Shown here in pieces: positions 33,201-60,377 of a stretch of DNA of 64,000 nucleotides. The DNA comes from Deltaproteobacteria bacterium (GTDB lineage Bacteria > Desulfobacterota > Dissulfuribacteria > Dissulfuribacterales > QOAL01), in assembly GCA_015493475.1 (NCBI GenBank), contig WGDC01000001.1, forward strand, positions 12,968 through 76,967, read 5' to 3'. The notes under the pieces are model-generated. The model was not told the origin of the DNA. It did no database searches and was given only the letters and a program-made list of their open reading frames with translations. The stretch's first letter is position 1. Every line of letters begins with the position of its first letter. Made by a program: the position numbers and the translations under genes.

Positions 33201-35475
33201 CGGAAAGGGTCATCTCAAGCCACTCGTTCATATTTTTACCCTTCAGCCTTATCTCAAGTGCCCTATCAGAAAACCTTCTTCCCTTACAGTCGGCGCAAGG
33301 CACCATGACATCGGGCAAAAACTGCATGTCAAGAAGCTCGTAACCCTGCCCGCCGCAGCTCTGGCACCTGCCTCCAACAACATTGAGAGAAAAATAGCCG
33401 GGCCTGAGCCCGAGGGATATCGCCTTCCGGGTTTTGGAAAAGAGCCTCCTAAGCGGATCAAGGATCTTGAGATAGGTTCCCGGACAACCTCGCGGGGTTC
33501 TCGAGGCAGGCTCCTGATCTATAAAGACCACAGAGTCAAATGGCTCGGGTATGATTATGGACTTAAACCTCCCGGGCTCGGAACAGGGCCGCCCCATCAT
33601 CCTTAAAAGCCCCCTGTAGATGCACTGCTCAACGAGGGTGGACTTTCCAGAGCCGGACACCCCGCAGACGCACGTCACCATCCCCATCGGGATTCGGCAC
33701 GTTATGTCTTTCAGGTTATTCTCGGTAAGCCCCCTGATCTCAAGAAAACTCGGGGAACCATCCATTGGCCGTCTCCCCTTGATAGCTACTGCATGAGGCG
33801 GCTCCAGCGTGTCTTGGGAAGGATGGCCCTCCGCAACCACGCGGCCTCCGTGCCTCCCGGACCCAGGACCCAGGTGGATAATCCTGTTTGCGCACCGGGC
33901 CATTAAGGGATCGTTCTCTGTCATCAGAACGGTATTGCCTGATTTCCTCAAGCCCTCAATTACTTCCCTTACGCCCTTAACGTCTGCGGGGTGAAGCCCA
34001 GAAGAAGGCTCATCTATACAATAAAGGGTCGCGGAAAGATTTGCGGATACGCCCTTTGCGATACAGAGCCGGGAAAGCTCCCCGCCCGAAAGGGTGCGCG
34101 AGCGCCTGTGAAGGGCAAGGTAGCCAAGGCCCGCCTGCCTTATTAAGGAAAGCCTCCTTTCAAGGTCTTGGAGCAGGGAACGGGAGGCCTCATCAAGACC
34201 CTCCCGTTCCCCGAGCCCCCTGCACCATTTAAGGGCGTCATGGACACTTAGCGCATAAAACCCGGCTATACTCAACCCTGAAAGCCTGTAGGACAGGGCC
34301 TCCTCGTTAAACCTAGCCCCCTTGCAGGAAGGACAAATATTGTATGCCCTGTATCTTGAAAGCAGAATTCGTATGTGGGCCTTGTATCTTTTTGATTCAA
34401 GCCGGCGAAAAATCTCCCTTACGCCGTACCACTCCTCCTTTCCAAAGAGGATGGCGTCTCTGTCCTGCTGGGAAAGCTCCCTCCAGGGCCTCGTGGCATC
34501 CATGCCCCACTTGCTACAGCAGGCGAGGAGAAACTCCTTTTCATCCTCCCAGTTTTCAAGGGGTCTTATTGCCCCTTCAATGACAGAGAGTGACTTGTCA
34601 GGAATCACTATGTCATAATCTATGTCCATTACCCTTCCGAAACCGCTACATGATGGGCACGCCCCCTCTACGGAATTGAACGAAAAAAGAAGCATTCCCG
34701 GAGGTTTCTTTTCGGTCCCGCACTCCGGACATACAGCCCCTTCGTGAAAGGCCCTTGTCTCCACCTTTCCGCCATCCGCGGGGAACACCGCGTACAGACT
34801 CCCGCCCGAAAGGCTGAAGGCGGTCTCAACCGCCTCCTTGACCCGCTGAATAGAAAGGGATTTAAGGGATAGTCTTTCAATAATCACGTAATGATTCTTG
34901 TGATCCGAAAGCCGCCGTACATCTACCTCGGACCCGTCCACCACACGGCCGTCCACAAGAATGCGCCTGTAGCCTTCCCCCACGAGGTCGTCGAGACGCT
35001 GAGCCCCTGCCTCTATACAGATGTAGCCGCAGGTGAAACCATTGCAGGCCGCCTCCTTGAAACAGTCAAACACGTCCTTTGGGCCGCACCGTCTTACCGG
35101 CACCCGGCAGCGTGTACAATAACCCGTGGCGTTTCTGAAAAAGAGCATCCTTGCCGGAAAGCTTACCTCGGAAAGAGTGGCCACTGTTGACCGGGAATTT
35201 CTCACCGGGTTGGACTGACCCACACCTATGGCAGCGGGAAGATTTTCCACCCGCCGTACCCTCGGCCTCGGTAGCCTTTCTAGAAACTGGCGCACATAGG
35301 GAGAAAAGGTCTCCATGAACTGTCTCTGGGCCTCACAGTAAATGGTGTCAAAGACAAGCGAGGACTTTCCTGAGCCGGAAGGACCGCAGAATGCGCAAAT
35401 GGAACCAGCCTCTATCTCAAGGTCGACGTCCTTCAGGTTGTGCTCCATGGCTCCGCTGATAATTAGGGCCTTCAT
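30241..35475 (-). CDS. tandem-duplicated UvrA-like ABC ATPase (two UvrA units, four nucleotide-binding domains, in one 1744-aa polypeptide)
   Basis: Walker A x4 ([36 protein letters not shown]). ABC signatures x4 ([36 protein letters not shown]). Walker B x4. UvrA zinc modules (CPECG...[15 protein letters not shown] and [20 protein letters not shown]). The second unit starts near 32700 ([15 protein letters not shown]). The ATG at 35475 ([17 protein letters not shown]) is preferred over the ORF-track start at 35721. Confidence 0.9.
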
Positions 35476-35614
35476 GGGAAAAGAAGATAAGACATGCTGG
35501 ATTTTCCTCAAGGCCCGGCAGGCGCGCAAGCGTTCGATGGCAGCTCCGAAACCTTTATGTAAAAGTGATTGCATGATAAGCTTACGTCTATTCCCGTCAA
35601 AAAGGAGAAAACTC

Positions 35615-38308
35615 ATGGGCATGACCGGCCTGTCGCATCTATTGTCGCCTTCAAGGATAGCAGTGTTCTCAAGTTCCCAGATTGACCAAAGATTTGAAAA
35701 AAGGCTCTTCCAGAACATCATCTCCTCCGGTTTCCGGGGGCCAATCTATCCCATCGACATAGAAAGGGAGGCGGTATGCGGGATCCCCGCCCACCGGACC
35801 ATAAAGGCCATAAAGAAGAGGCCGGACCTGGCGCTTGTCACAGGGTCACCGGACTTGGTACCGGGGGTCCTCGAAGAGTGCGGCAAGGCGGAAATACCTG
35901 CCGCCATCATATTTTCGATGGATTTCAGGCACAGGACTGCGGACAGTAAAAAGATCGCATCGAGGATAAAGGATATTTGCAAGGACTACAACATCCGGTG
36001 CATAGGCCCAAATTCCCTCGGAATCATAAGACCGGGCAATAACATAAATATCAGCGTGAGTCTCAAGGCGCCGCCAAGGGGAAAGGTGGCCTTCCTGTCC
36101 CAGAGTTCCACGCTTGCAGCCTCCATTCTCGACTATGCGGCGTCCAAGCACGTGGGGATGAGCACCTTCGTGTCCCTTGGGGCACAACTTGATGTCGACT
36201 TTTCAGACATCATCGACTTCCTGGCCATGGACCCGGAAACGAGGGGAATCATCCTCTACCTCGAATCCATAAAAAACGGCCGCAAATTCATCAGCGCAAG
36301 CCGCTCCTTTACCCGGACAAAGCCCATGGTGGTAATTAAGGGGGGCAGGTTTGAACAATCAAGACTCGTCTCCTTCAGCCGCATGGGCTCCCTTGCCGGC
36401 GAGGACATGGTTTACGATGCTGTGTTCAAAAGGGCGGGCATGGTCAGGGTGAAAGACGTGCTCGAGCTTTTCAACACCTCCGAGGCCCTTTCAAAACAGC
36501 CCGCTCCCAAGGGTAACCACCTCGCAATAGTCACCAACGCCGGAGGGCCGGCCGTTCTGGCGATAGATGTCCTCATAAAAAAGGGCGGGCACCTTGCCAC
36601 CCTGGAAAAGGAAACCGTTGACAGGATAAAAAAGGCCCTTCCTCCCACGGCCCCTGTTTCAAACCCTGTTGACTGCCTGTCTGACGCCTCGGCCTCGAGA
36701 TTTTCAGACGTGATAGACGCCCTTCTCCAGGATGATACCTCGGACGGGGTCCTCGTGATAGTGACGCCCCAGCCCTACACGGAACCTGGCGATACGGCCC
36801 AGACGCTTATAGGGCTTTCCCGCAGGCATCCCTACAAAACCATCCTTGCATGCTGGATGGGCAGTGAAGACATGGACCGGGCAAGGAAGATCCTTAACGA
36901 GAATGGGATACCCACCTTCGTAGCCCCGGAACAGGCGGTCAAGAGCTTCCTTTACATGTACGAATACGAGGCCAACAGGCAGATGCTGTCCCAGACACCT
37001 TCCAACATCCTCGTGGATTTTCATCCGGACAAGGAAAGGGCCCTTTCCATCTTCAAATCCGTTGCAAAGGACGGAAGGCTGTTCTTGCTTGAGCGGGAGA
37101 CTAAGCAGGTACTCGAGGCCTACGGCATCGAAACCACTCCCATGGCCCTGGCAAGGAGTCCGGAAGAGGCCCTCAAGATTGCGAGGAAAACTGGATTTCC
37201 CGTGGCTCTCAAGATAGAATCCCCGGACGTTCCCAACAAGAGCAAGGCGGGAGGGGTAAGACTGCACCTTTTGGAGGAGGATGTGAAAAAGGCGTTCCGG
37301 GAACTCAAGACCAACCTCAAGAAGTACATGCCTAATGCCGATTTTCACGGTTGCACTGTGGAACCTATGATACTTGGCATGGGGTACGAATTCGCAATGG
37401 GCGCCCAGAAAGACCCTACCTTCGGCTCGGTAATAGTCTTCGGGCTGGGGGGCCAGCTCCTCGAGGCGGAAAAGGACTACGCGGTAGGCCTCCCGCCGCT
37501 TAACCAGGCAGTTGCAAGGCGCCTTATGCAAGACACAAGGATATGCAAGTACTTATCGGAGGAACAGGACGGCCTCGAGATGATGGAAATCTTAGAAAAG
37601 GCACTGGTGCGTTTCTCCATACTCGTGGCAGACTTTTCGTTCATCAAGGAGATAGAAATCAACTCCTTTTTCCTTGAAAAGCAACGGGGTGTGTGCCTTG
37701 ACGGAAGGATCGTGCTCGAAGAAGAAGTACTCGAAGGTGTACGGGTTGGCCAGGGAAGTACCTGCCCGGAACACCTGGTAATATGCCCGTATCCCTGCCA
37801 GTACATAGACACCATGAAGCTGAAGGAGGGAACCCCTTACACCATCCGCCCCATCAAGCCGGAGGATGAACCCCTCATGGCTGAACTCTTTTCCACCTTC
37901 TCCGAGCAAACCATCATCAACAGATTCTTTCAGCTAAAGAAGAGCCTCACCCACGATGAATTGGCGAGATATTGCCAAGTGGATTATGATAGGGAAATCG
38001 CCCTCGTGGCGGTATTAGAATCCCAGGACAGGGAACGGATAATCGGCGTATGCAGGCTAACCATAATGCCTGACGGGGAAAACGCCGAGCTTGCAGTGGT
38101 AATAGGAGACCCATGGCAGGGACACGGCATCGGGAAGGCCCTCATGGCCAAGACCATTGAAGTGGCAAGGGAAAAGGGCCTGAAAAATATCTGGATGGAT
38201 GTTTTGAGAGACAACAACCCCATGAAAGGCCTCGCCAGGAAATTTGGCTTTAAGCTCGCGGAGTCCGAGGATCCGGATATCCTGCGCTTTGTCCTAGGGA
38301 ACCTTTGA
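35615..38308 (+). CDS. Pat-type protein acetyltransferase (ADP-forming acyl-CoA synthetase-like domains + C-terminal GNAT)
   Basis: AAGGAG RBS then ATG at 35615. LLSPSRIAVFSSS (CoA-binding start), succinyl-CoA-ligase-like and ATP-grasp regions, and a C-terminal GNAT (IGVCRL...VVIGDPWQGHGIGKALM). The ORF-track start at 35342 overlaps the divergent uvrA-like gene. Confidence 0.85.
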   Translation: MGMTGLSHLLSPSRIAVFSSSQIDQRFEKRLFQNIISSGFRGPIYPIDIEREAVCGIPAHRTIKAIKKRPDLALVTGSPDLVPGVLEECGKAEIPAAIIFSMDFRHRTADSKKIASRIKDICKDYNIRCIGPNSLGIIRPGNNINISVSLKAPPRGKVAFLSQSSTLAASILDYAASKHVGMSTFVSLGAQLDVDFSDIIDFLAMDPETRGIILYLESIKNGRKFISASRSFTRTKPMVVIKGGRFEQSRLVSFSRMGSLAGEDMVYDAVFKRAGMVRVKDVLELFNTSEALSKQPAPKGNHLAIVTNAGGPAVLAIDVLIKKGGHLATLEKETVDRIKKALPPTAPVSNPVDCLSDASASRFSDVIDALLQDDTSDGVLVIVTPQPYTEPGDTAQTLIGLSRRHPYKTILACWMGSEDMDRARKILNENGIPTFVAPEQAVKSFLYMYEYEANRQMLSQTPSNILVDFHPDKERALSIFKSVAKDGRLFLLERETKQVLEAYGIETTPMALARSPEEALKIARKTGFPVALKIESPDVPNKSKAGGVRLHLLEEDVKKAFRELKTNLKKYMPNADFHGCTVEPMILGMGYEFAMGAQKDPTFGSVIVFGLGGQLLEAEKDYAVGLPPLNQAVARRLMQDTRICKYLSEEQDGLEMMEILEKALVRFSILVADFSFIKEIEINSFFLEKQRGVCLDGRIVLEEEVLEGVRVGQGSTCPEHLVICPYPCQYIDTMKLKEGTPYTIRPIKPEDEPLMAELFSTFSEQTIINRFFQLKKSLTHDELARYCQVDYDREIALVAVLESQDRERIIGVCRLTIMPDGENAELAVVIGDPWQGHGIGKALMAKTIEVAREKGLKNIWMDVLRDNNPMKGLARKFGFKLAESEDPDILRFVLGNL

Positions 38309-50590: not shown

Positions 50591-50810
50591 GGTTCACCCC
50601 TACACCAAAAGTATGTCTAAAAAAACAACCTCAAATTAAAGGAACTAACCTGCCCTGTGATGCAAAACAATAGCAGCCCTACAAACCAGAGGCAAAAGAT
50701 TCCTCTTTCAATGGATAACAGGTGATAAAAAAATTTGAACCTTTTTCACCCCACTGGGTACCAATAACAAAAAGGACTTGAAACAAAAAAAGAAAGGAGG
50801 AGAAAGAATT

Positions 50811-51707
50811 ATGAGAAACAAAAAGTCTTCGGTCATTATTTTAACCATCCTTTTCCTGATAGTGACCGTTACCTGTGCGGCATACGCGGGGAAAAAGGAA
50901 ATGAACATTAAACCACCCAAAACCACCTTTGACAGAAACATCCAAAACATGGTTAGGCCCCCCAGGCCAGACCTCATTGTGACAGACATTAAGGCCAAGG
51001 ACGATCCTAAGGGCTGTTTTTTGCAGGTCACCTTGAAAAACAATGGACCAGGTAAAATCCCTGAGACCTACTACCATAAACCGCCAAGGGTGGCCATCCA
51101 GATGTATAATGGCAATAATCCCTGGGGAGGAATAGTCCTTTTTGGTTTTGACCCTTATAAGAAAGTACAAAATCCCGGTGGGATGGCAACTTGGGACTGG
51201 TTTCCCGGAGCCCAGAACCTGAGACTGCATCCAGGCTATTACACCATCAAGGTGGTGGCAGATAGTAACCACGAACTTGCAGAGGCGAATGAAAACAATA
51301 ATTCCCTGGCGAGAAAGGTCTCATGCGGTTGCAATGTCAGGCTACCAAAACCAGTGATAAGATATAGCAATAGGGACTCCAAGGGCAGGGTCTATATTCC
51401 TGTTGTAAACTGGGCAAGCTTCCCAAATGAACTCTTTCAGCCTGCTCCATATCTGCCGCCTTGTGGACTGAACAAGAACTCCTCAAGGACCTGGGTGAAC
51501 ATCTATGATGCGCAGACCAACCAGCGGCTTTATGGTTTCTGTGCCCTAGGCCATAGCAAGAATCTACAGGGTATTTGGTTCATGCCCCCTTCCAACGCCA
51601 AAGTAAAGGCCGTTTACGTCGAGATTAAAGACAGGGCCTGCGGCCGTAGTCAACGCTCAAACGTGGTAAATATATCCAAGTCCATGGGCATGGTAAAAAT
51701 ACGCTAA
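50811..51707 (+). CDS. secreted protein with CARDB-like domain
   Basis: AGGAGG RBS then ATG at 50811, followed by a signal peptide. PDLIVTDIKA...VTLKNNGPGKIP...GYYTIKVVADSNHELAEANENNNSL is the CARDB pattern. The C-terminal half is Cys-containing and unassigned. Confidence 0.6.
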   Translation: MRNKKSSVIILTILFLIVTVTCAAYAGKKEMNIKPPKTTFDRNIQNMVRPPRPDLIVTDIKAKDDPKGCFLQVTLKNNGPGKIPETYYHKPPRVAIQMYNGNNPWGGIVLFGFDPYKKVQNPGGMATWDWFPGAQNLRLHPGYYTIKVVADSNHELAEANENNNSLARKVSCGCNVRLPKPVIRYSNRDSKGRVYIPVVNWASFPNELFQPAPYLPPCGLNKNSSRTWVNIYDAQTNQRLYGFCALGHSKNLQGIWFMPPSNAKVKAVYVEIKDRACGRSQRSNVVNISKSMGMVKIR

Positions 51708-51813: not shown

Positions 51814-51842
51814 TTGACAAAACCAACCTGCTCCATTAAAAA
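51814..51842 (+). promoter_or_regulatory. candidate sigma70-type promoter of the cytochrome c3 gene
   Basis: TTGACA (51814-51819), 17 nt spacer, TAAAAA (51837-51842), about 55 nt upstream of the ATG at 51897. Confidence 0.35.
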
Positions 51843-51896
51843 CAGAATCTGTACATGAATCATTATTCACAAAATAGAAGAAAGGAGGAGCGAGAA

Positions 51897-52265
51897 ATGC
51901 ACACCACCAAGGTGTTGTCAGTACTGTTTGCGCTGCTTTTCGGCTTGGCTGTAGCTGGTCTCGCAGCGGCAGGGGAGGGTCCGGAGGTTATAACGCTAAA
52001 GGCCAAGAAGGGAGACATCACTTTCCCGCATCACAAGCACCAAAAGATTACAAAGTGCGGTGAATGTCACCATGGACCAAACCATTCCCCATACAAGCCA
52101 GGTATGAAGATCCAGACCTGCGACAAGTGCCACAACAAGGACTTCCCCAACAAGAAGCTTAACAGCGTTATGAAGGCCCTGCACAAAAATTGCCGCGGCT
52201 GCCACAAAAAGCACAAGGCAGAGGGTGCACCAACAAAGTGCAGCGGCTGCCACAAAAAGAAATAA
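51897..52265 (+). CDS. periplasmic tetrahaem cytochrome c3-family protein
   Basis: AGGAGG RBS and a signal peptide. Four CxxCH (CGECH, CDKCH, CRGCH, CSGCH). ITFPHHKH distal-His motif. Lys-rich, 122 aa. Confidence 0.9.
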   Translation: MHTTKVLSVLFALLFGLAVAGLAAAGEGPEVITLKAKKGDITFPHHKHQKITKCGECHHGPNHSPYKPGMKIQTCDKCHNKDFPNKKLNSVMKALHKNCRGCHKKHKAEGAPTKCSGCHKKK

Positions 52266-52748
52266 CAAGGCAAAAAAACACAAGGAGGCAGGGCGTGCGC
52301 TCTCAAGGCAGGCCAGTTCCCCTATTTGCTTGGAACAAATTACTTTCAGAATCCTGATGCTGATCCCGCTCAAAATACCAGCCTTGGCATATTCCGTCTT
52401 TCAACAACAGCCCTTCTCCTTTTACGGGAAGAAAACACACAATCCAAACACAAGGAGTACTTGCAGCCACGGGAGAGGAGACTGGCCATCTGCGGGACAT
52501 GAAGTAAAAAAGGTTACTCACTTTTCTGTTGCAATTTATTCGTCTTTGTATTATGTAGGGACCTCAAATTTTGATCCGTAGCATATTTTCCCGGCCCATG
52601 CTGTCACCGCGGTGCTGACAGAGGAGGGTTCAATGTTCATTTAAGCCCGGAATGGCTCACCTGACGAGTTAAAACCGGGCGAGGGATGATAGTACGCTTT
52701 TTTCTTCTTTATGTCACAAACTACGAAAAAACAGGGAGAGCATGTTTC

Positions 52749-53459
52749 ATGAAGGTCACTAAAATGGTGTTCTTGGTCCTGGGTATGGTGGCGTCAGCCG
52801 CTCTTTTGGCTAATGGTATCGGACAGGCAAAATCCGAACAGGCAGCGGAGGCATCTCGGAAATGTGTAATCCGCAAGCAGCCGCCGAAGGAGGTCATTTG
52901 GGACAAGCCAAACAAGGCCGTTTTTAATCATGCCTACCATGTAGATGAGGTGGGCCTTGAATGCACCGACTGTCATAACCGCCTCTTTACCAAAAAAATA
53001 GGAGCCGCCTTAGGCAGAAAGGACTTCAACATGGACTCTTTCGCTAAGGGGAAATACTGCGGAGCGTGCCATAACGGCGAGGAGGCATTTAATGCCCAAA
53101 CCGAGTGCGATGCCTGCCACTTCGCGCCCAAAACGAGAATTGTGTTCACCAAACCGGTCAAGGCCGTGGTCTTTGAACACAAGATCCACGTGGGCAAGGC
53201 CAAGATAAAGTGCGAGACCTGCCATAAGAAGGTCTTTATCATGAGAAAAGCTGTCTTTGCCCACCTTAAGCCCGTGGAAACCGGAAGCATAGAGCTGAAG
53301 GACAGATACCTTGAAAAGCTGCACAAGAGGTTTTGTGGAACGTGCCATGACTCCCACAGGGCCTTTGGTTTTGCCACAAGGTGTACTGTCTGTCATATCG
53401 GGGTCAAGGGGTACACGCTTCTCAACAAGGAGGGCAAGCTCCCGGAAGACCATCAATAG
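52749..53459 (+). CDS. hexahaem cytochrome c built from two trihaem (c7-type-like) modules
   Basis: Signal/anchor MVFLVLGMVASAALLA. Two repeated blocks: VFNHAYHV..CTDCH..CGACH..CDACH and VFEHKIHV..CETCH..CGTCH..CTVCH. Confidence 0.85.
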   Translation: MKVTKMVFLVLGMVASAALLANGIGQAKSEQAAEASRKCVIRKQPPKEVIWDKPNKAVFNHAYHVDEVGLECTDCHNRLFTKKIGAALGRKDFNMDSFAKGKYCGACHNGEEAFNAQTECDACHFAPKTRIVFTKPVKAVVFEHKIHVGKAKIKCETCHKKVFIMRKAVFAHLKPVETGSIELKDRYLEKLHKRFCGTCHDSHRAFGFATRCTVCHIGVKGYTLLNKEGKLPEDHQ

Positions 53460-53543
53460 TTAAGAGCGAGAAGCCGGTTCTCAGCCATAAGGTAAGGAAA
53501 TGATTCCATAACACTAACATAAGTAACGGGAGAGGAAATACCT

Positions 53544-54851
53544 ATGAGCGAAGTGGAAATAAGCATTTCGGAAAAATGGGGTTACAACGGCCTTGCGGCC
53601 ATAAAAGAAGCCAGCACGGCCTACAAGATGGCCATGGGGTTTTTCGCGCTGCTGTTCTTGGTAGGCCTAGCCTTCGGCCTTCACGGGTTTTTCGTTGGCT
53701 ACAGGCATGTTTACGGGGTTACGCGGGAGATAGCGTGGGGACTCCTCATCTCCACATACATCTTTTGTGTCGTTACCTCCACGGGTCTTTGCATAGTGTC
53801 ATCGTTTGGCCACGTCTTTGGCAACGTGGCATTCATGCCCATTGCAAAAAGGGCGGTATTCATGTCCATAGTGTTTCTTGTCGGGGGATTCTGCATCATA
53901 TTCTTTGACCTGGAAAACCCCTTCAGACTGTTTATATGGAACGTGGTTTCACCGAACCTGCGCTCTAACATGTGGTGGATGGGAACCCTGTACGGTGCCT
54001 ACATGGTATTCATGATGCTGGAGTACTACTGCCTGCTCAACCAGAACCACTCGGTATCGAGAATAATGGGCTTCTTGGGCCTCGCCGTTGGTATAGCGGC
54101 GCACAGCAACCTCGGGGGCATCTTTGGCATGCTGCACGGCAGGCCATTCTGGTATGGTCCCTACCTTCCCATCTATTTCATATTTTCCGCTGCAATGTCA
54201 GGAGGCTGCGCCATTCTCTTCTTCACCACCCTCGGGGCAAGATTCAACCCGGAAGTAATGAACGAAACCATGCAGCGGGCGGTAAAGGCCATCACCCTTC
54301 TCACCATCTACTTTATTGTGGTTATCATGTTTTTCACCCTTTGGAAGATTATCACTGGACTCGTGTCAGAGGGAAAGGCACCGGTCATCGAATCCTTTCT
54401 CTATGGCAAATACGCGGTCAACTTCTGGTTCTTCGAGGTCTTTCTCGGGATGATCCTGCCCCTTGCCCTCTTAATCATTTCAAAGGGCAGGAAATACAAC
54501 CTAATAATGTGGGTTACCGGCATCCAGATGATAGGAATCTTCTTCATGCGCTATGACATCGTGATACCTGGCCAGATGGTTCCTGTATACCACTCCCTCG
54601 GGGTAGTGGAGGCCTCCCATCTGCTGAGTTATACGCCGTCGTGGCACGAGATAATGATATCCATCTACGGGGTATCCTTTGTGGCCTTGTTATACCTGGC
54701 CGGAGAAAGGTTGTTTAACAGCCACCAGCTCCAAAAACACGAAATCGTTCCAGAAGGGGCGTACGTGTGCCCAGGTTGTGGCGCTATCCACTATATGAAG
54801 GAGGGCGAGACGATAGAAGAGGCCATGAAACGTCACCACGGCGGTTGGTAA
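53544..54851 (+). CDS. NrfD/PsrC/DsrP-family polytopic quinone-interacting membrane subunit
   Basis: 435 aa, about 10 TM. Its position between the cytochrome c and FeS subunits supports the call. It has a C-terminal soluble tail with CPGCG. Confidence 0.8.
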   Translation: MSEVEISISEKWGYNGLAAIKEASTAYKMAMGFFALLFLVGLAFGLHGFFVGYRHVYGVTREIAWGLLISTYIFCVVTSTGLCIVSSFGHVFGNVAFMPIAKRAVFMSIVFLVGGFCIIFFDLENPFRLFIWNVVSPNLRSNMWWMGTLYGAYMVFMMLEYYCLLNQNHSVSRIMGFLGLAVGIAAHSNLGGIFGMLHGRPFWYGPYLPIYFIFSAAMSGGCAILFFTTLGARFNPEVMNETMQRAVKAITLLTIYFIVVIMFFTLWKIITGLVSEGKAPVIESFLYGKYAVNFWFFEVFLGMILPLALLIISKGRKYNLIMWVTGIQMIGIFFMRYDIVIPGQMVPVYHSLGVVEASHLLSYTPSWHEIMISIYGVSFVALLYLAGERLFNSHQLQKHEIVPEGAYVCPGCGAIHYMKEGETIEEAMKRHHGGW

Positions 54852-54922
54852 GAACTTGGCGCCTATTGACACAGACAAATCATGTTAGAGGATACCTTTG
54901 AACTTTCAGGAGGCATTTGGAT

Positions 54923-55744
54923 ATGCGGATTCACGGAATAAAATTCGATGATACGAAAAACGAGGGCACGGGATCGGTTACCAAGATGGAAAGGAGAAAA
55001 TTCCTTAAAATGGGCTTTGCCATAGCAGGCGTCTTTGCTGGAGGCAAAATACTTGGCCTGACCTCCATCGTGGGCTCGGCAAGGGCCTCTGACGGCATCG
55101 AGGTGGAGGCCTACCCTTACAGCCCCCATTACAGCATGGTGGTGCGCCAGGCAATATGCATAGACTGCGAGCGTTGCGTGGATGCCTGCAAGAAGACCAA
55201 CCATGTACCGGATTACGGTTACAGGACGCGCATACTCACGAAAAAATACGAGGGCAAGTGGGACAAGGCCGTGGAGTTTATCCCGGTCCTGTGCAACCAT
55301 TGCAACAATCCCCCCTGCGTCAGGGGATGTCCCACAAAGGCCACCTACAAGGACCCCATAACAGGTATCGTACGAATGAACAGCAAGAAGTGCATTGGAT
55401 GCAAGACATGCATACTTGCCTGCCCCTATGACGCCAGGTACTTCTGTGAAGAAAAGCGTGCGATAGACAAGTGTGATTTCTGCTGGGACGAGAGACTGTC
55501 AAAGGGAGAGAAGCTCACTGCCTGTGCCGCTGCCTGTCCCACAGGGGCAAGGACCTTCGGCAATATCGCGGACCCTGATGACATAGTGTACAAGCTAGTC
55601 CACCAGGCCGAGGAGGTGGTGTGGGTCCTGCGCCCGGAAGATAACACCAAGCCCAATGTATTCTACATGAAGGGGACCATCGGATCGGTGGAAAGGATAC
55701 TCAAGGGTACCAAGTACCGATACTTTGACCCCACCAAGATCTGA
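54923..55744 (+). CDS. Tat-exported 4x[4Fe-4S] ferredoxin subunit (NrfC/DsrO/HybA/PsrB-like)
   Basis: Twin-arginine signal ERRKFLKMGFAIAGVFAG. Four Cys clusters (CIDCERCVDAC, CNHCNNPPCVRGCP, CIGCKTCILACP, CDFC...CAAACP). Alternative start at 54986. Confidence 0.9.
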   Translation: MRIHGIKFDDTKNEGTGSVTKMERRKFLKMGFAIAGVFAGGKILGLTSIVGSARASDGIEVEAYPYSPHYSMVVRQAICIDCERCVDACKKTNHVPDYGYRTRILTKKYEGKWDKAVEFIPVLCNHCNNPPCVRGCPTKATYKDPITGIVRMNSKKCIGCKTCILACPYDARYFCEEKRAIDKCDFCWDERLSKGEKLTACAAACPTGARTFGNIADPDDIVYKLVHQAEEVVWVLRPEDNTKPNVFYMKGTIGSVERILKGTKYRYFDPTKI

Positions 55745-55771
55745 TATCCCCTCATAAAACGTCCCCTCTTT

Positions 55772-55815
55772 AAGAAAGGCAATTGGCAGCGAGAAAAGGT
55801 CCGGTTGCCTTTCTT
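55772..55815 (+). terminator. hairpin downstream of the FeS-subunit gene (possible terminator)
   Basis: AAGAAAGGCAA (55772-55782) is the perfect reverse complement of TTGCCTTTCTT (55805-55815). The loop is 22 nt and there is no clean T-run. Confidence 0.4.
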
Positions 55816-56228: not shown

Positions 56229-58238
56229 TTGCAGTGGCCATTTCTTGGATCATTATTGAAAAGGATAAGCGACATGAAAAGAGATGCATGGAAAGGGAAA
56301 GGGTTTCTAAAAGGACTCTTCTTGATTTTGCTCCTCGGGCTGACCATAGATAGCCACAACGCGCTCGCCATGACCAACGAGGAATGCCTCGAATGTCACA
56401 GTGACGAAGGAATCACTCGGGAGGCGGATGACAGCTCGGTTTACGTAAACCCTGATGTCTTCGCCAAGTCGGTACATGGGGGAGAAGATTGCATGTCATG
56501 CCACACGGACGCAAAGGGTGAGGATGAGCATCCACCGCACCTAAAGAAGGTACAATGTTCCATGTGCCATGAGGACATAGCCAAAACATTTGATGGGATC
56601 ATTCACGGCAAGGCGCATGGGGACAAGAAGCAGACTGCCCCAAGTTGCAAGAGCTGCCACGGAACCCATGATATCCTTCCCCCGGATGATCCAGCCTCAA
56701 AGGTATACATACTAAACATACCGGCCACGTGCAGCAGGTGCCACTGGAAGGAAAAGGCCGGCGGGGGAAAGGGTACACTTCCCAAAAACGCCATGAACAT
56801 CCACGGCAAGGCAATAGAGGGAGGGATCACGGTTGCTGCGGTTTGTACCACGTGCCACGGATCCCACGATGTAGTCGCCTACACAAACCCCGCTTCTCCG
56901 GTAAGCTATAAAAAACTGAAGAAAACCTGCACGAGGTGCCACGCAGGCCTTCCTGCCATCCATAAAAATGTCATAAAGCCTTCCATATGGGTGAAGGACC
57001 CAGCCAAGATTCCCCTTTGCATCCAGTGCCACCTGCCTCACGGAAAGAGGAAGTTAAAGTACCCCCAGGTCTTCACGGATGACTACTGCCTAAAATGTCA
57101 CAGCAACCCGAACCTTATAAGGCCGGACAGGAAAGGAGGGATTGACAGCCTTTACGTAGATACGGATGAATACGACGAATTTGCCGGGACGATGCACAAG
57201 AAAAAGGGCCTCACCTGCGTCATGTGTCATCCCAAGATGGACAGGGAAGAAAACCCCGTGTGCAAGAACGCGGGGCCAGTGGACTGCTCCACGTGTCACG
57301 CTGATGTCTTCAATGACTACCTGCACAGTGTACACGGCATAAAACGTTCCGGCGAACTCGATCCCAACGCACCTTCTTGCGTGGATTGTCACGGTAAACA
57401 TGCCATCCTGGCAAAGGACAACCCGGACTCCCTAATAAATCCCATAAACATCCCGAGACTTTGCGCTTCCTGCCATGCCAAAGGGGAAAAGGCATCCATA
57501 AGGCGCGGAGAAGGCGTGGACGTGGTCTCTACATACCTGAAGAGCGTTCACGGAGACGGGTTGGAAAACGGCGGGCTGGTGGTTTCTGCCTCCTGCGTGG
57601 ATTGTCACGGCGGCCACAAAATCCTCCCCTCTTCCAACCCCAAGTCAACCGTGAACAAGGGCAACATCCGCCAAACCTGCGAAAAATGCCACTACGGCGT
57701 GGGAATAAAACTGGCCCAATCGGTCCACAATCCTCCTTTCGGTGCGGACAAGTCCCTTTTCCCTGCCTGTACCGACTGCCACACGTCGCATGAGATTTTG
57801 AGAGGCACGGATCCAAACTACAGGAGGCATGAAATCCAGGCATGCGCAAAGTGCCATCCAGAGGAGGCGGAAACCTACCTCGAAAGCTACCACGGAAAGG
57901 CTGCGTTTCTCGTGGGTGGCGAAAGAGTTGCCCATTGTTCAGACTGCCACGGCAGCCACGACATTCTTGCGGTGACAGACCCACTGTCCACCCTTTCCGG
58001 TGAGAATGCGGTAAAGACATGCCGAAAGTGCCATCCAAAGGCAAACCTGAGCTTTACCACGTACAGGACCCACGCCTCGCACTGGGACAAGGAAAAGAAC
58101 CCGGACATGTACTACTCCTTCATCGCCATGACCTCCCTGCTGCTTGGAACCTTCGCGATTTTCGGCATTCACACCATCCTCTGGATACCGCGTTCGTTGA
58201 AGGAGAGATTGAAAATGAAAAAAGACTCCGATGCATAA
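56229..58238 (+). CDS. membrane-anchored multihaem cytochrome c with 19 CxxCH motifs
   Basis: I counted 19 CxxCH motifs. N-terminal signal (LFLILLLGLTIDSHNALA). C-terminal TM helix (YYSFIAMTSLLLGTFAIFGIHTILWIP). Six repeats of CxxCH-[GT]-x-H-x-[IV] followed by a Pro/Ser-rich turn. GGAGG plus TTG at 56229, or ATG at 56274. Confidence 0.9.
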   Translation: MQWPFLGSLLKRISDMKRDAWKGKGFLKGLFLILLLGLTIDSHNALAMTNEECLECHSDEGITREADDSSVYVNPDVFAKSVHGGEDCMSCHTDAKGEDEHPPHLKKVQCSMCHEDIAKTFDGIIHGKAHGDKKQTAPSCKSCHGTHDILPPDDPASKVYILNIPATCSRCHWKEKAGGGKGTLPKNAMNIHGKAIEGGITVAAVCTTCHGSHDVVAYTNPASPVSYKKLKKTCTRCHAGLPAIHKNVIKPSIWVKDPAKIPLCIQCHLPHGKRKLKYPQVFTDDYCLKCHSNPNLIRPDRKGGIDSLYVDTDEYDEFAGTMHKKKGLTCVMCHPKMDREENPVCKNAGPVDCSTCHADVFNDYLHSVHGIKRSGELDPNAPSCVDCHGKHAILAKDNPDSLINPINIPRLCASCHAKGEKASIRRGEGVDVVSTYLKSVHGDGLENGGLVVSASCVDCHGGHKILPSSNPKSTVNKGNIRQTCEKCHYGVGIKLAQSVHNPPFGADKSLFPACTDCHTSHEILRGTDPNYRRHEIQACAKCHPEEAETYLESYHGKAAFLVGGERVAHCSDCHGSHDILAVTDPLSTLSGENAVKTCRKCHPKANLSFTTYRTHASHWDKEKNPDMYYSFIAMTSLLLGTFAIFGIHTILWIPRSLKERLKMKKDSDA

Positions 58239-58267: not shown

Positions 58268-59113
58268 ATGAACAGCGGCGAAACTATATACGTTCAGAGG
58301 TTTAACGCCTTTGCCAGGATACTTCACTTTTTCGTTATAATAAGTTTCCTCACCCTGGCCCTCACGGGAATGTGCCTCAAGTTCTCCACGGAGTCATGGG
58401 CACAATGGACAGCTTCCATGTTTGGCAGTTTCAGGGTACTGGGCGTGCTTCACCGCATTGCCGCGGTAATAACCTTTGGATACTTTTTCGGCCATTTCAT
58501 CCTGGTCTACCATAACTACCGGAAAAGCGGGAAGCCCCTTTTGAGATTCATAATCGACGAAAACACCGGAATGGTTCCAAACCTGAGGGACCTCCAGGAG
58601 ATAGGTCAGACCATCAAGTGGTTTCTCGGCAAGGGGCCGCGGCCTGCATACGGACGCTGGACTTACTGGGAGAAGTTTGACTACCTCGCAGTGTTCTGGG
58701 GTGTTGCGGTCATCGGATTCACAGGACTATGCCTGTGGTTCCCGGTATTTGCCACTCGCTATCTTCCAGGATGGTTTCTCAACATCGCCACCATTGTTCA
58801 CAGTGACGAGGCGCTGCTTGCTACAGGCTTCATCTTCACCATACATTTCTACAATACCCACCTGAGGCCAGAAAAATTCCCCCTTGACAAGGTGATTTTT
58901 ACCGGGGTGGTAACCCTAGATGAACTGAAGCATGAAAGGCCCCGCGAATACGAGACCCTTGTAAGGGAAGGACGCTTAGACGAGGTTATCACGGATCCGC
59001 CTCCGAGGTGGCTAGTGATATTCGCATACGTCTTTGGGCTCTCTGCGGTTACCATAGGCCTGTCCCTCATATTCACCATATTTTTCACCCTGCTGAAATA
59101 CGGGTTGAGATAA
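58268..59113 (+). CDS. b-type cytochrome membrane subunit (FdnI/PhsC/Ni-hydrogenase cytochrome b family-like)
   Basis: GGAGG RBS. RFNAFARILHFFVIISF...VLHRIAAVITFGYFFGHF...TIVHSDEALLATGFIFTIHFYNTH shows conserved His residues on TM helices. 29 nt after the cytochrome c stop. Confidence 0.8.
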   Translation: MNSGETIYVQRFNAFARILHFFVIISFLTLALTGMCLKFSTESWAQWTASMFGSFRVLGVLHRIAAVITFGYFFGHFILVYHNYRKSGKPLLRFIIDENTGMVPNLRDLQEIGQTIKWFLGKGPRPAYGRWTYWEKFDYLAVFWGVAVIGFTGLCLWFPVFATRYLPGWFLNIATIVHSDEALLATGFIFTIHFYNTHLRPEKFPLDKVIFTGVVTLDELKHERPREYETLVREGRLDEVITDPPPRWLVIFAYVFGLSAVTIGLSLIFTIFFTLLKYGLR

Positions 59114-59209: not shown

Positions 59210-59521
59210 ATGAACAGTAACGTGCCCTTAAAAAGAAGACTTGCCATATACGCCACGGAAATATTGATGGTGCTCCTTTTGATCTTAATGTTACGAAATT
59301 TCGTAAGCGCCATCTACTATAGCGTAAAGACCAGCACCGCAGAGATACAACGGTATTACGAGAAAGGGATAACAGACGCCACTGAGTTGAGCAAGAAAGG
59401 CAACATTCTTGAACCGGTACGGGATATCGCGAATCCCCTTCTGCTAAGGATGTACGAAAAGGGATTCCGGGACGGCATAGACTCGACAAGAAACGAAAGG
59501 AGTAAACATGAGAAGGGGTAA
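59210..59521 (+). CDS. small single-TM hypothetical protein
   Basis: 103 aa with one TM (IYATEILMVLLLILML). Its 3' end overlaps the next gene's start by 14 nt, which suggests translational coupling. Confidence 0.4.
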   Translation: MNSNVPLKRRLAIYATEILMVLLLILMLRNFVSAIYYSVKTSTAEIQRYYEKGITDATELSKKGNILEPVRDIANPLLLRMYEKGFRDGIDSTRNERSKHEKG

Positions 59522-60377
59522 TCTAATAATAGGGCTGATGATTTCTTTTCTCTCGGGTGCTTATCTGTCATCCGGAATCTCGGTGGCATCAACCATCCTC
59601 GACATACCTGCCATAGGCGCGGATAAGCTTAAACACGAGCTCTACGAAGGGCCTCCCATGGTGTGCGCCAACGCGCTAAGCCCCATTGAATTCCAGGACC
59701 TGACCATTAGGGGATCAGTGAACATCCCGTCGAGCAGGGTAAAGGACAATCCAAACCTCCCGGAGGACAAGGGAGAGCTCCTGGTCTTTTTCTGCAAGGG
59801 CCTCCCTACGTGACTTAAAAGCCACGAAGCCGCCAGGAAGGCGGTTAAACTTGGCTTTACCAACGTAAAGGTCTATTCCAAGGGCCTCCCGGACTGGATA
59901 CGGAGAAGATACCCCGTGATCCGTATGGTCAACTATCCCAAGGTTCGCATTCCCCTTATCCATCCTTCGCAGGTCATGAAGAAACTCAACGAGCTTACTA
60001 TCCTCGACATAGGTGGCGAGGAGCTCAATAAGATAGGGCAGTTCAAGAGGGGCAATGTTATTCACATCCCCATGGACGATCTCGAAGACGACTACAACAA
60101 GCTACCCAAGGACAGGACCCTGGTGATCACCGACGTAATGGGAAAGCAGGAACAGATCGCCGGGAGGTTCCTGTGGATGAAAGGATACAGAAAACTCTTG
60201 GCCATGAAGGGGGGTGGCCGCGCCTGGTTTGATACCGTGCGGGTACTGAAAAGAATCCAGACAGAGGAAGCTCCTATCGGAACAAAAAAGTTTAAAGAAA
60301 CGGAAAAACAGGTGAAAGAAAAGATAAAGGCCGAGCCGAAAGAGAAGAAGAAGAAGAACAGGTCAGCACCATGGTAA
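59508..60377 (+). CDS. periplasmic tandem rhodanese-domain protein, probable selenoprotein (in-frame UGA at 59811-59813 read as Sec)
   Basis: AGGAG RBS and a signal peptide. ORFs 59508-59813 and 59916-60377 share one frame, and there is no stop in 59814-59915. The TGA splits a single rhodanese fold inside the active-site loop: LLVFFCKGLPT-[UGA]-LKSHEAARKAVKLGFTNVKVYSKGLPDWIRRRYPV. A SECIS-like hairpin follows. The second rhodanese-like domain lacks Cys, and the tail is Lys-rich. Confidence 0.7.
59818..59858 (+). promoter_or_regulatory. putative bacterial SECIS element
   Basis: Lower stem AAAGCC (59818-23) / GGCTTT (59853-58). Internal loop. Upper stem AGCCGCC (59828-34) / GGCGGTT (59840-46, including one G-U pair). 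Apical loop AGGAA (59835-39), with GG about 23 nt after the UGA. Confidence 0.6.

Follow-up and report, generated by a model that had tools for sequence, protein, structure and literature searches.

What does a quinone-interacting membrane module do when no catalytic subunit is encoded beside it? This question is raised by a group of co-oriented genes in a 64,000-nucleotide stretch of contig WGDC01000001.1 (positions 12,968 to 76,967) from a Deltaproteobacteria bacterium; we refer to the whole stretch as the window. The group comprises four genes, for a tetrahaem cytochrome c3, a hexahaem cytochrome, an NrfD-like membrane protein and an iron–sulfur (FeS) protein. The last three, at positions 52749-55744, likely encode a three-subunit complex of the cytoplasmic membrane that links the menaquinone pool to periplasmic multihaem cytochromes and has no catalytic subunit of its own. 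Judged from motifs, profile matches and predicted structures, export signals, cofactor motifs and folds in the three proteins are those of a haem–FeS chain that faces the periplasm and sits on an NrfD-type subunit, and their genes are inherited as a unit; their products most likely act as one complex. The trio defines a widespread subfamily in Desulfobulbales that has no name, with a modular cytochrome of 3, 6 or 9 haems in c7-type domains and an invariant C-terminal tail on the NrfD subunit, and the definition of this subfamily is what is new in this work.

The conservation of the trio was assessed in 70 related NrfD-encoding loci, obtained by a pattern scan with one genome per species (related loci and contigs are designated L001-L074). 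Almost all of them belong to Desulfobulbales (Desulfocapsa, Desulfopila, Desulforhopalus, Desulfurivibrio, Desulfobia and further Desulfobulbaceae), and two isolates are included. The NrfD gene was found in 69 loci, the FeS gene directly downstream of it in 65 and a c7-type cytochrome gene directly upstream in 59; the order cytochrome–NrfD–FeS, with 6 or 9 haems in the cytochrome, is kept in about 60 of the 70. The conserved unit is this trio only. In more distant relatives, namely a Thermodesulfobacteriaceae metagenome-assembled genome (MAG), a Desulfobacterales MAG, a Methanomassiliicoccales archaeon and one further bacterium, the order is NrfD–FeS–single triheme domain.

The cytochrome of the window contains six CxxCH motifs in two groups of three, and an F-x-H-x-x-H motif in the form FNHAYH or FEHKIH in each of the two modules. 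Both the Pfam model Cytochrome_C7 (95.9 bits) and the NCBIfam model of the c7 triheme domain, TIGR04257 (111.1 bits against a cut-off of 40), match it in two stretches. The open reading frame (ORF) could begin as early as 52686, but the ATG at 52749 agrees with gene calls of 236 amino acids (aa) in relatives that are 97% identical. Its best match in the PDB is GSU1996 (3ov0, E 1.2e-41), with weak matches to the c7-like part of ActA. Across L001-L068, the cytochrome encoded upstream of NrfD differs in its number of complete c7 domains, giving 3, 6 or 9 haems; orthologues have 6 haems in 28 loci and 9 in 31. The window has 6, whereas its closest genome relatives (L001-L004) have 9, and its two domains are equivalent to the second and third of the nonahaem form.

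The NrfD-like protein has 435 aa (53544-54851) and matches Pfam NrfD (PF03916) over residues 60-346 with 88.3 bits against a cut-off of 25.8. An AlphaFold2 model built with 63 homologues has exactly 10 transmembrane helices (mean predicted local distance difference test score, pLDDT, 80.5; predicted TM-score 0.84), and the membrane core contains no haem- or cluster-binding motif. Comparison of the model with the PDB by Foldseek gave ActC of alternative complex III from three species as the best matches (6btm_C, E 2.5e-10; TM-scores 0.73-0.74), followed by ActF (E 6.3e-06 to 9.7e-05, TM-scores 0.58-0.60) and the 8-helix PsrC (2vpw_C, E 9e-4, TM-score 0.45). The modelled fold of the NrfD subunit is thus ActC-like, in keeping with a family in which 8-10 transmembrane helices form two four-helix bundles and the type with 10 helices resembles ActC. 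A sequence search of the PDB with the single sequence or with the 63-sequence profile returned nothing at E<=10. The four-cluster FeS neighbour by which NrfD/PsrC proteins are recognized is encoded 65 nt downstream, and the pair is kept in 65 of the 70 loci. This FeS protein, of 275 aa, carries the twin-arginine translocation (Tat) motif RRKFLK at residue 26 and 16 cysteines in four motifs (residues 81-91, 126-138, 159-169 and 186-207), with one extra cysteine. It matches Pfam Fer4_11 with 81 bits, and its best PDB match is PsrB (2vpw_B, E 4e-42); the FeS domain of ActB also matches it. By these matches, the membrane subunit is a member of the NrfD/PsrC family, the FeS protein an NrfC/PsrB-type ferredoxin and the hexahaem protein a c7 triheme-domain cytochrome. 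The features are summarized in the table.

The initial annotation of this DNA, made by a model from the sequence alone, had listed a tetrahaem c3 gene with four CxxCH motifs, an untranslated gap of 483 nt, a hexahaem cytochrome of two repeated modules, an NrfD-type subunit of about 10 helices with an unusual tail, a twin-arginine protein with four [4Fe-4S] motifs and a 19-haem operon downstream, and all of these are present in the sequence. Motif counts and Pfam agree on the c3; the gap has the given length with the start at 52749, which the 236-aa calls in relatives support; the two modules of the hexahaem protein coincide with the two TIGR04257 and Cytochrome_C7 stretches; the helices are those of the AlphaFold2 model of a Pfam NrfD protein; RRKFLK and 16 cysteines are in the FeS protein; and 19 CxxCH motifs were counted in the downstream cytochrome. 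The region it delimited, 51814-55815, is a little too wide: it starts upstream of the c3 coding sequence and ends 71 nt beyond the stop codon of the FeS gene (55744). Its central proposal, that a cytochrome c, an NrfD-type and a Tat-exported FeS protein form a periplasm-facing, quinone-interacting module, is borne out by the conserved trio.

Table. Positions of the trio and of neighbouring features in the window (numbered from its first nucleotide).
Feature	Position	Strand	Features in sequence or support
Hexahaem cytochrome, two c7-type triheme domains	52749..53459	+	6 CxxCH; N-terminal Sec signal or signal anchor
NrfD/PsrC-type membrane core, 10 transmembrane helices, residues 1-390	53544..54713	+	Pfam NrfD; AlphaFold2 model
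C-terminal tail of the NrfD subunit, residues 391-435	54714..54851	+	HEIVP-x3-Y-[IV]-CPGCG-x-IH-x15-(H)H; 45 residues
Tat-exported NrfC/PsrB-type ferredoxin, four [4Fe-4S] motifs	54917..55744	+	RRKFLK; 16 Cys; alternative start ATG 54986
Tetrahaem cytochrome c3-type gene	51897..52265	+	4 CxxCH; Pfam PF02085; Sec signal peptide
Intergenic gap	52266..52748	.	483 nt, c3 to hexahaem gene
19-haem cytochrome, first gene of the neighbouring operon	56229..58238	+	19 CxxCH; C-terminal membrane helix with His
FdnI/HydC-type cytochrome b, partner of the 19-haem cytochrome	58268..59113	+	Pfam Ni_hydr_CYTB 44.2 bits against cut-off 30.1; weak FdnI matches
Two small ORFs of no family (59210-59521, 59508-59813) and a weakly rhodanese-like ORF (59916-60377)	59210..60377	+	Synteny

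Assignment of the NrfD subunit to a curated family was attempted and failed, both for the protein itself and for its close relatives. Its best NCBIfam match, although weak, was HmcC (NF045714, 53.4 bits, cut-off 550), followed by NrfD (TIGR03148, 44 bits, cut-off 347.6) and DsrP (NF045798, 35 bits, cut-off 350); QrcD (NF041784) gave no match at E<=0.01. A HMMER search of 1.84 billion cluster representatives returned 1204 relatives of the subunit, 119 of them at E<=1e-30, and the NCBIfam scan was extended to the 110 full-length representatives among the best 150. No NCBIfam model matched any of the 110 at E<=1e-30 (for HmcC, the best value was E 1.2e-23), and they resemble DsrP, HmcC, QrcD, HybB, NrfD and TtrC weakly and about equally. 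Because neither the protein nor any of its 110 neighbours reaches a cut-off, the subunit belongs to a sizeable subfamily beyond the curated models. Clustering of the subunit inside an already characterized family, which the initial annotation had named as evidence that would tell against its reading, was not seen in these profile tests. The FeS protein likewise stays under the NCBIfam cut-offs of DsrO (158 against 200), NrfC (TIGR03149, 168 against 377.6) and TtrB. In one of the cluster representatives, P0133 (679 aa), an NrfD-type protein continues at its C-terminal end into a multihaem cytochrome.

The most distinctive element of the subfamily is the tail of the NrfD subunit, with its ligand pattern C-x2-C-x3-H-x15-H. 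Every homologue that is at least 55% identical ends in HEIVP-x3-[YF]-[IV]-CPGCG-[AG]-IH-[FY]...EGE...RHH. In 159 distinct tail-bearing sequences the V and P of this signature, C409, G411, C412, G413, H416, E422, R430 and H432 are invariant, while H399 is conserved in 98% and H431 in 91%; the initial annotation, which had found the tail foreign to the family and asked whether its CPGCG is conserved, is thus answered. In a neighbour-joining tree of the relatives (no bootstrap) the tail-bearing sequences form one clade, whose sister is a tail-less clade of Thermodesulfovibrionales and Thermodesulfobacteria, and paralogues of 390 aa without the tail, encoded in the same Desulfopila and Desulforhopalus genomes, fall in other parts of the tree. 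AlphaFold2 models of the full protein and of the tail only (pLDDT 69.8) both place the CPGC turn on a beta-hairpin, after which comes a helix that ends in HH, and in these models the layout is that of a small Cys2His2 zinc finger. In P0263, a metagenomic fragment, the same ...IVPPGGFICPGCGG motif runs into a complete four-cysteine zinc ribbon of the topoisomerase type with a lysine-rich end, and this continuation supports a metal-binding knuckle. We infer that the tail binds metal, most likely a structural zinc. In ActC, whose 10-helix fold is the same, both termini lie on the N (cytoplasmic) side of the membrane (PMC8076601), and the tail is therefore probably cytoplasmic too. As the membrane is not bridged by any cofactor, we regard a redox role as unlikely and favour docking or regulation at the N-side end of the subunit. 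No such tail is described in the NrfD literature that we consulted (PMC8076601, PMC6303296, PMC13059093, PMC13047784).

A second, paralogous module was noticed a few kilobases from the main one in L007-L010, L012, L015, L019, L031 and L058 (for example, L010 12993-15479, minus strand). It consists of an FeS protein (250 aa), a single c7 triheme domain (~138 aa) and a tail-less NrfD protein (390 aa) that falls in a different clade. Relatives of the NrfD–FeS pair also occur in two archaeal MAGs, of Methanomassiliicoccales (L070 7950-10547, with a triheme c7 protein; NrfD 41% identical) and of Archaeoglobaceae (L069 7854-9769; 29% identical), and the module type therefore crosses domains.

Compared at the level of their sequences, the module is none of the characterized complexes, as each lacks at least one of the defining features tested. 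Closest in function and in the logic of their subunits are NhcABCD and HmcABC, Qrc minus QrcB, the ActA–ActB2–ActC core of alternative complex III, Cbc4 of Geobacter and the DsrOhPh-tetrahaem locus. NhcABCD and HmcABC of Desulfovibrio likewise combine a periplasmic multihaem cytochrome, an NrfC-type protein with four [4Fe-4S] clusters and a 10-helix NrfD-type subunit without a catalytic subunit, and are described as TpIc3:quinone oxidoreductase (PMC8076601). Their cytochromes, however, are class III with c3-type tetrahaem domains, in contrast to the c7-type triheme domains (3, 6 or 9 haems) of the module, which also lacks NhcD and HmcDEF genes and has the Cys2His2 tail. Qrc and the module have in common a periplasm-facing set of hexahaem cytochrome, FeS subunit and 10-helix NrfD-type subunit, with c3 as a plausible partner, but the window encodes no QrcB-like subunit, and the scores for QrcA (NF041781, 22.3 against 180) and QrcC (NF041782, 85.7 against 400) are far below the cut-offs, with no match to QrcD. 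The distinction from Qrc drawn by the initial annotation, the lack of QrcB, is upheld by the missing molybdopterin-fold gene and by these scores; its distinction from Dsr is upheld as well, as neither dsrMK nor dsrJ was found in any locus and the DsrP score is 35 against 350. NrfABCD differs in that the NrfD and NrfC cut-offs are not reached and no NrfA- or NrfB-type gene is adjacent. Alternative complex III resembles the module in outline through its ActA/ActB2/ActC core (ActC fold, TM-score 0.74; c7-like domain of ActA), but the module has no molybdopterin-like ActB1 domain, no ActD or ActE and no second NrfD-type subunit corresponding to ActF.

Three further systems are relevant. Cbc4 (CbcSTU) of Geobacter sulfurreducens, like the module, joins a cytochrome c, a protein with four [4Fe-4S] clusters and an integral membrane subunit, and was proposed as a quinol:periplasmic-cytochrome oxidoreductase without a catalytic subunit (bioRxiv 10.1101/2025.04.14.648717). 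CbcS is a membrane-anchored tetrahaem protein of the NapC/NirT type, whereas the cytochrome of the module is a c7-domain dimer with a signal peptide that matches Cytochrome_C7 and TIGR04257 rather than NapC/NirT; CbcT and CbcU were compared by description only. The DsrOhPh-tetrahaem locus, known from cable bacteria and from some Desulfobulbales and thus from the same order of bacteria, also combines a cytochrome, an FeS and an NrfD-type protein in a proposed quinone–periplasmic cytochrome link, but the DsrOhPh clade branches beside DsrP, on which the NrfD subunit of the module scores only 35 bits, and gene order and cytochrome type differ (PMC13047784). The dodecahaem GSU1996 and the PpcA-type c7 cytochromes contain the same triheme domain as the cytochrome of the module; GSU1996, however, is a free periplasmic protein of four domains, whereas the cytochrome here has two (one or three in relatives) and is encoded in an operon with NrfD and FeS genes. 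The gene set itself has been noticed before: in the 2013 genome paper of Desulfocapsa sulfexigens, four of seven 'polysulfide reductase' genes were reported in operons with a 4Fe-4S protein and a cytochrome c (PMC3739170), and WP_015405243 of strain DSM 10523 is the orthologue of the NrfD subunit of the window. In treating a module free of a catalytic subunit as unusual, the initial annotation went too far, given that report and the three-subunit analogues Nhc (PMC8076601), Cbc4 (bioRxiv 10.1101/2025.04.14.648717) and DsrOhPh-tetrahaem (PMC13047784).

By analogy with PsrABC, alternative complex III and Qrc (PMC8076601, PMC6303296, PMC13059093), the quinone/quinol site would lie in the NrfD subunit near the periplasmic face, under the FeS subunit. 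Electrons would run from there through the four FeS clusters and the six haems to a soluble or anchored periplasmic partner, and the protons of the quinone reaction would pass through the NrfD subunit. The flow of electrons is probably reversible. The genes around the trio, in the window and in the related loci, bear on the partner and on the direction.

In the window, as in 68 of the 70 loci, no molybdopterin or other catalytic gene lies beside the module. The whole 64 kb of the window contains no molybdopterin-fold or QrcB-like gene, and Pfam scans of the window and of the recurrent neighbours detected no hydrogenase and no formate dehydrogenase; by the same scans, the recurrent neighbours are regulators, an FtsH paralogue, transporters, a CpxP/Spy-like protein and other cytochromes. 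The two remaining loci, L002 and L003, whose NrfD subunits are 80% identical to that of the window, differ: 70 nt upstream of the nonahaem gene, and in its orientation, begins a set of three genes, for a TorD-like chaperone, a Tat-exported PhsA/PsrA-like molybdoenzyme and a PsrB-like FeS protein (L002 3118-6817; L003 1-1353). The molybdoenzyme, of 766 aa, scores 492 bits on PhsA (cut-off 694) and keeps the Fe4S4 and molybdopterin-binding domains; the four-cluster PsrB-like protein ends in a hydrophobic helix, and these loci contain no PsrC-type gene besides the NrfD gene of the module. No homologue of this molybdoenzyme was found in the window. The claim that the module has no catalytic subunit thus stands for the window and 68 loci, but the anchor-less PhsAB-like enzyme of L002 and L003 comes near to the catalytic gene in the same operon that the initial annotation itself had named as contrary evidence. 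Judged from its sequence, the PhsAB-like enzyme together with the module could be an 'active' counterpart of the layout of Qrc and alternative complex III.

The c3 gene is found next to the module only in the window and in its own species group (L072, L073). Its ORF opens at 51855 and the likely start is the ATG at 51897, which follows the ribosome-binding site (RBS) AAGGAGG. The protein scores 53.2 bits on Pfam Cytochrom_CIII (PF02085, cut-off 22.9); it agrees with the description of a class III tetrahaem cytochrome, for which four CxxCH motifs in ~100 mature residues are expected, and stays under the cut-offs of the specific TmcA and c7 equivalogs. Metagenome contigs L071-L073 (NrfD 97% identical, ~85% DNA identity) keep the 3' end of c3, a gap of equal length and the whole downstream arrangement, while in L002 a c3-like gene, 36% identical, lies a few kilobases away on the opposite strand. 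As the adjacency is confined to the window and its 97%-identical relatives, the linkage is real at the level of the species group only; c3 as a conserved subunit of the module is rejected on the synteny over the 70 loci, and the inclusion of c3 in the unit by the initial annotation did not hold. The contigs L071, L072 and L073, which are independent and stem from near-identical organisms, all begin inside or just before the c3 gene at nearly one position, which suggests strain variation or an upstream repeat. Just upstream of c3 (50778-51707, plus strand) the window encodes a secreted protein of 309 aa with a weak CARDB match, no other family and no counterpart in the related loci.

The gap that separates c3 from the trio is 483 nt long if the hexahaem gene starts at the ATG at 52749 (RBS GGGAGAG), and it probably holds the promoter and 5' untranslated region of the module. 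It is 72-79% identical to the gaps of L071-L073, compared with 84-90% in the flanking genes, and behaves like ordinary intergenic DNA. An RNA element was rejected, as no part of the window, gap included, scored up to the gathering threshold of an Rfam family, and the gap is less conserved than the genes. Since the closest relatives have nonahaem cytochromes, a decayed third c7 domain was sought in the gap, but tblastn with six nonahaem orthologues found nothing in 52266-52748, and blastn of the gap against L001-L005 and L067 gave no match and no gene remnant.

The operon downstream of the trio begins ~480 nt away, and each of the two units looks like an operon of its own. The C-terminal helix of the 19-haem cytochrome (58100-58238, ...FAIFGIHTILW...) includes a histidine, and in CbcA a histidine of the C-terminal helix is thought to ligate a b haem of the partner cytochrome b (bioRxiv 10.1101/2021.04.15.440034); with its dihaem-type cytochrome b, the 19-haem protein has a bc-type architecture like that of CbcBA from Geobacter, described in the same work. 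This pair adjoins the module in 8 of the 70 genome loci, in two orders, and additionally in L071 and L072: it lies downstream in L001-L003, L005, L067, L071 and L072, and upstream in L047, L061 and L063. The two small ORFs and the rhodanese-like ORF (22.6 bits, cut-off 22.2) accompany it in L002, L003, L005, L047, L067, L071 and L072, and the rhodanese-like companion hints at a sulfur-related role of the operon.

Other neighbours differ between lineages. A divergent octahaem cytochrome is encoded next to the module in L002, L004 and L074. Upstream of it, 42-47 Desulfocapsaceae loci (for example, L006 106-6560, L010, L058, L033 and L066) carry a histidine kinase, a sigma-54 NtrC-type response regulator (602 aa), a small hydrophobic protein of no family (70-86 aa) in one to three copies, an FtsH paralogue (623 aa) and a membrane protein of 301 aa with no family, and a CpxP/Spy-like Metal_resist protein lies downstream in 11 loci. 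Sigma-54 control, which this regulator brought to mind, was dismissed: no -24/-12 site precedes the module in the window, and the scan of all loci gave three loose matches only. The candidate partners are thus an adjacent c3 (window, L072 and L073), an octahaem cytochrome, a c3-like protein or an anchor-less thiosulfate/polysulfide reductase of the PhsAB kind (nearest relatives) and the 19-haem/cytochrome b pair (several lineages), and because they differ by lineage, the module appears to be a generic hub rather than part of one enzyme. Elsewhere in the window, an ORF of 1826 aa (30241-35721, minus strand) contains UvrA interaction and DNA-binding domains and several ABC ATPase P-loops, and is about twice as long as a normal UvrA.

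For the direction of transfer in such a hub, quinol oxidation that feeds periplasmic cytochromes and reductases is slightly favoured, and transfer from cytochrome to menaquinone, as in Qrc and Nhc, is nearly as probable. The former agrees with the anchor-less PhsAB genes found beside the module in its nearest relatives, with c7-type domains, which are typical of periplasmic carriers in Geobacter, and with the report that periplasmic sulfur reductases of sulfur-disproportionating relatives draw on the quinol pool (PMC12142623). The label 'c3:menaquinone oxidoreductase' given by the initial annotation implied a direction by analogy only, and the PhsAB of L002 and L003 points at least equally to quinol oxidation. 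Several points weigh against our reading of the trio as a link between menaquinone and periplasmic cytochromes. It is built entirely on sequences and predicted structures; the quinone site and the proton path would follow from the analogy of the fold with ActC, to which the NrfD subunit is 14-17% identical; the tail is modelled with pLDDT values of 64-85, matches no Pfam family and, searched alone by Foldseek, gives no significant match (best E 2.5, in a list almost wholly of small zinc fingers); and the evidence on direction is split, with the c3 neighbour, HmcC as the best, weak match and the analogy to Nhc and Qrc speaking for quinone reduction.

The same three points would fit a module that serves specifically as a cytochrome c3:menaquinone oxidoreductase, as the initial annotation read it. 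In this role the module would functionally replace Qrc or Nhc and, with protons taken from the cytoplasm, would be electrogenic; this is a possible, though rather doubtful, alternative. The c3 gene lies directly upstream here and in the 97%-identical relatives, HmcC is the best NCBIfam match of the NrfD subunit, and the cytochrome matches QrcA weakly. Low-potential haems of the c3 and c7 type would make transfer from cytochrome to quinone downhill. The logic of the subunits is also that of NhcABC, a TpIc3:quinone oxidoreductase (PMC8076601), and of Qrc minus QrcB (PMC13059093). Against it, the module has no c3 link in 67 of the 70 genome loci, and even in the window 483 nt separate the two; neither the window nor the conserved neighbourhoods contain a hydrogenase or formate dehydrogenase gene; the matches are far from the cut-offs (HmcC 53 against 550, QrcA 22 against 180, QrcD none); and the nearest relatives have an anchor-less reductase beside the module. 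That reductase could instead mean that the module anchors a Phs/Psr-type molybdoenzyme in the membrane and provides it with electrons, the catalytic genes having been lost from the locus or lying elsewhere in the genome, as the TorD-, PhsA- and PsrB-like genes of L002 and L003 are upstream, on the same strand and without another PsrC-type gene, and the NrfD subunit is annotated as 'polysulfide reductase' in public records. We consider this unlikely: the arrangement occurs in two of the 70 loci only, the window has no homologue of the enzyme and the upstream gap no gene remnant, and the module includes an FeS subunit and a multihaem cytochrome of its own, for which a classical PsrABC has no need.

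An alternative of a different kind joins the module and the 19-haem/cytochrome b pair in one redox loop, in which menaquinone would be reduced at one face of the membrane and menaquinol oxidized at the other, with a proton gradient gained from transfer between two periplasmic or extracellular cytochrome pools. The units are adjacent in the window, in L071 and L072 and in 8 genome loci from at least three lineages and in differing order. The FdnI-type cytochrome b of formate dehydrogenase-N carries an N-side quinone site. The cytochrome b of the pair is FdnI/HydC-like. The quinone sites of NrfD-type subunits are on the P (periplasmic) side (PMC8076601). Such a loop is nevertheless quite improbable, as about 60 of the 70 loci have no 19-haem neighbour within 8 kb, ~480 nt lie between the two apparent operons, and CbcBA-type pairs of Geobacter are described as quinol oxidases (bioRxiv 10.1101/2021.04.15.440034); if that holds here, the two units would be parallel rather than complementary. 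It is very improbable that the module is a diverged relative of DsrJOP and cooperates with DsrMK in reducing or oxidizing sulfite. The FeS subunit scores 158 bits on DsrO, near the cut-off of 200, and a DsrOP-like locus with a cytochrome exists separately in cable bacteria (PMC13047784), but the NrfD subunit scores 35 bits on DsrP against 350, the cytochrome is c7-type and not DsrJ, no locus has dsrMK near the module, and D. sulfexigens has a separate dsrPJKM locus (PMC3739170). We therefore retain a quinone–periplasmic cytochrome link as the reading of the trio. It could be extended to a bolder proposal, that the Cys2His2 tail is a metal centre on the cytoplasmic side that gates proton uptake or docks a cytoplasmic partner, while in this lineage the module and the 19-haem/cytochrome b pair form a cytochrome-to-cytochrome redox loop; this combination is speculative and, in our estimate, unlikely.

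The Desulfobulbales include sulfur disproportionators, sulfide oxidizers and cable bacteria, in which the transfer of electrons between the quinone pool and periplasmic cytochromes is largely unsettled. The trio is among the most conserved candidates for this link in the order, without a name or a curated model, and it can be recognized by the signature of a c7-domain cytochrome, an NrfD protein with the CPGCG...H...HH tail and a Tat-exported FeS protein. The cultured carrier D. sulfexigens DSM 10523 and the proteoliposome assay established for Qrc (PMC6303296) make the family testable; other cultured carriers are Desulfopila sp. IMCC35006, Desulforhopalus sp. IMCC35007 and Desulfurivibrio. 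The NrfD family is defined as cofactor-less; metal binding by the tail would give an NrfD-type subunit its first cofactor-like element and offer a handle on how these subunits couple quinone chemistry to protons. The active-looking PhsAB of L002 and L003 may offer a view of the origin of Qrc and alternative complex III, both of which retain an inactive molybdopterin-fold subunit. The redox loop, if true, would mean that energy is conserved from electron transfer that takes place wholly outside the cytoplasm.

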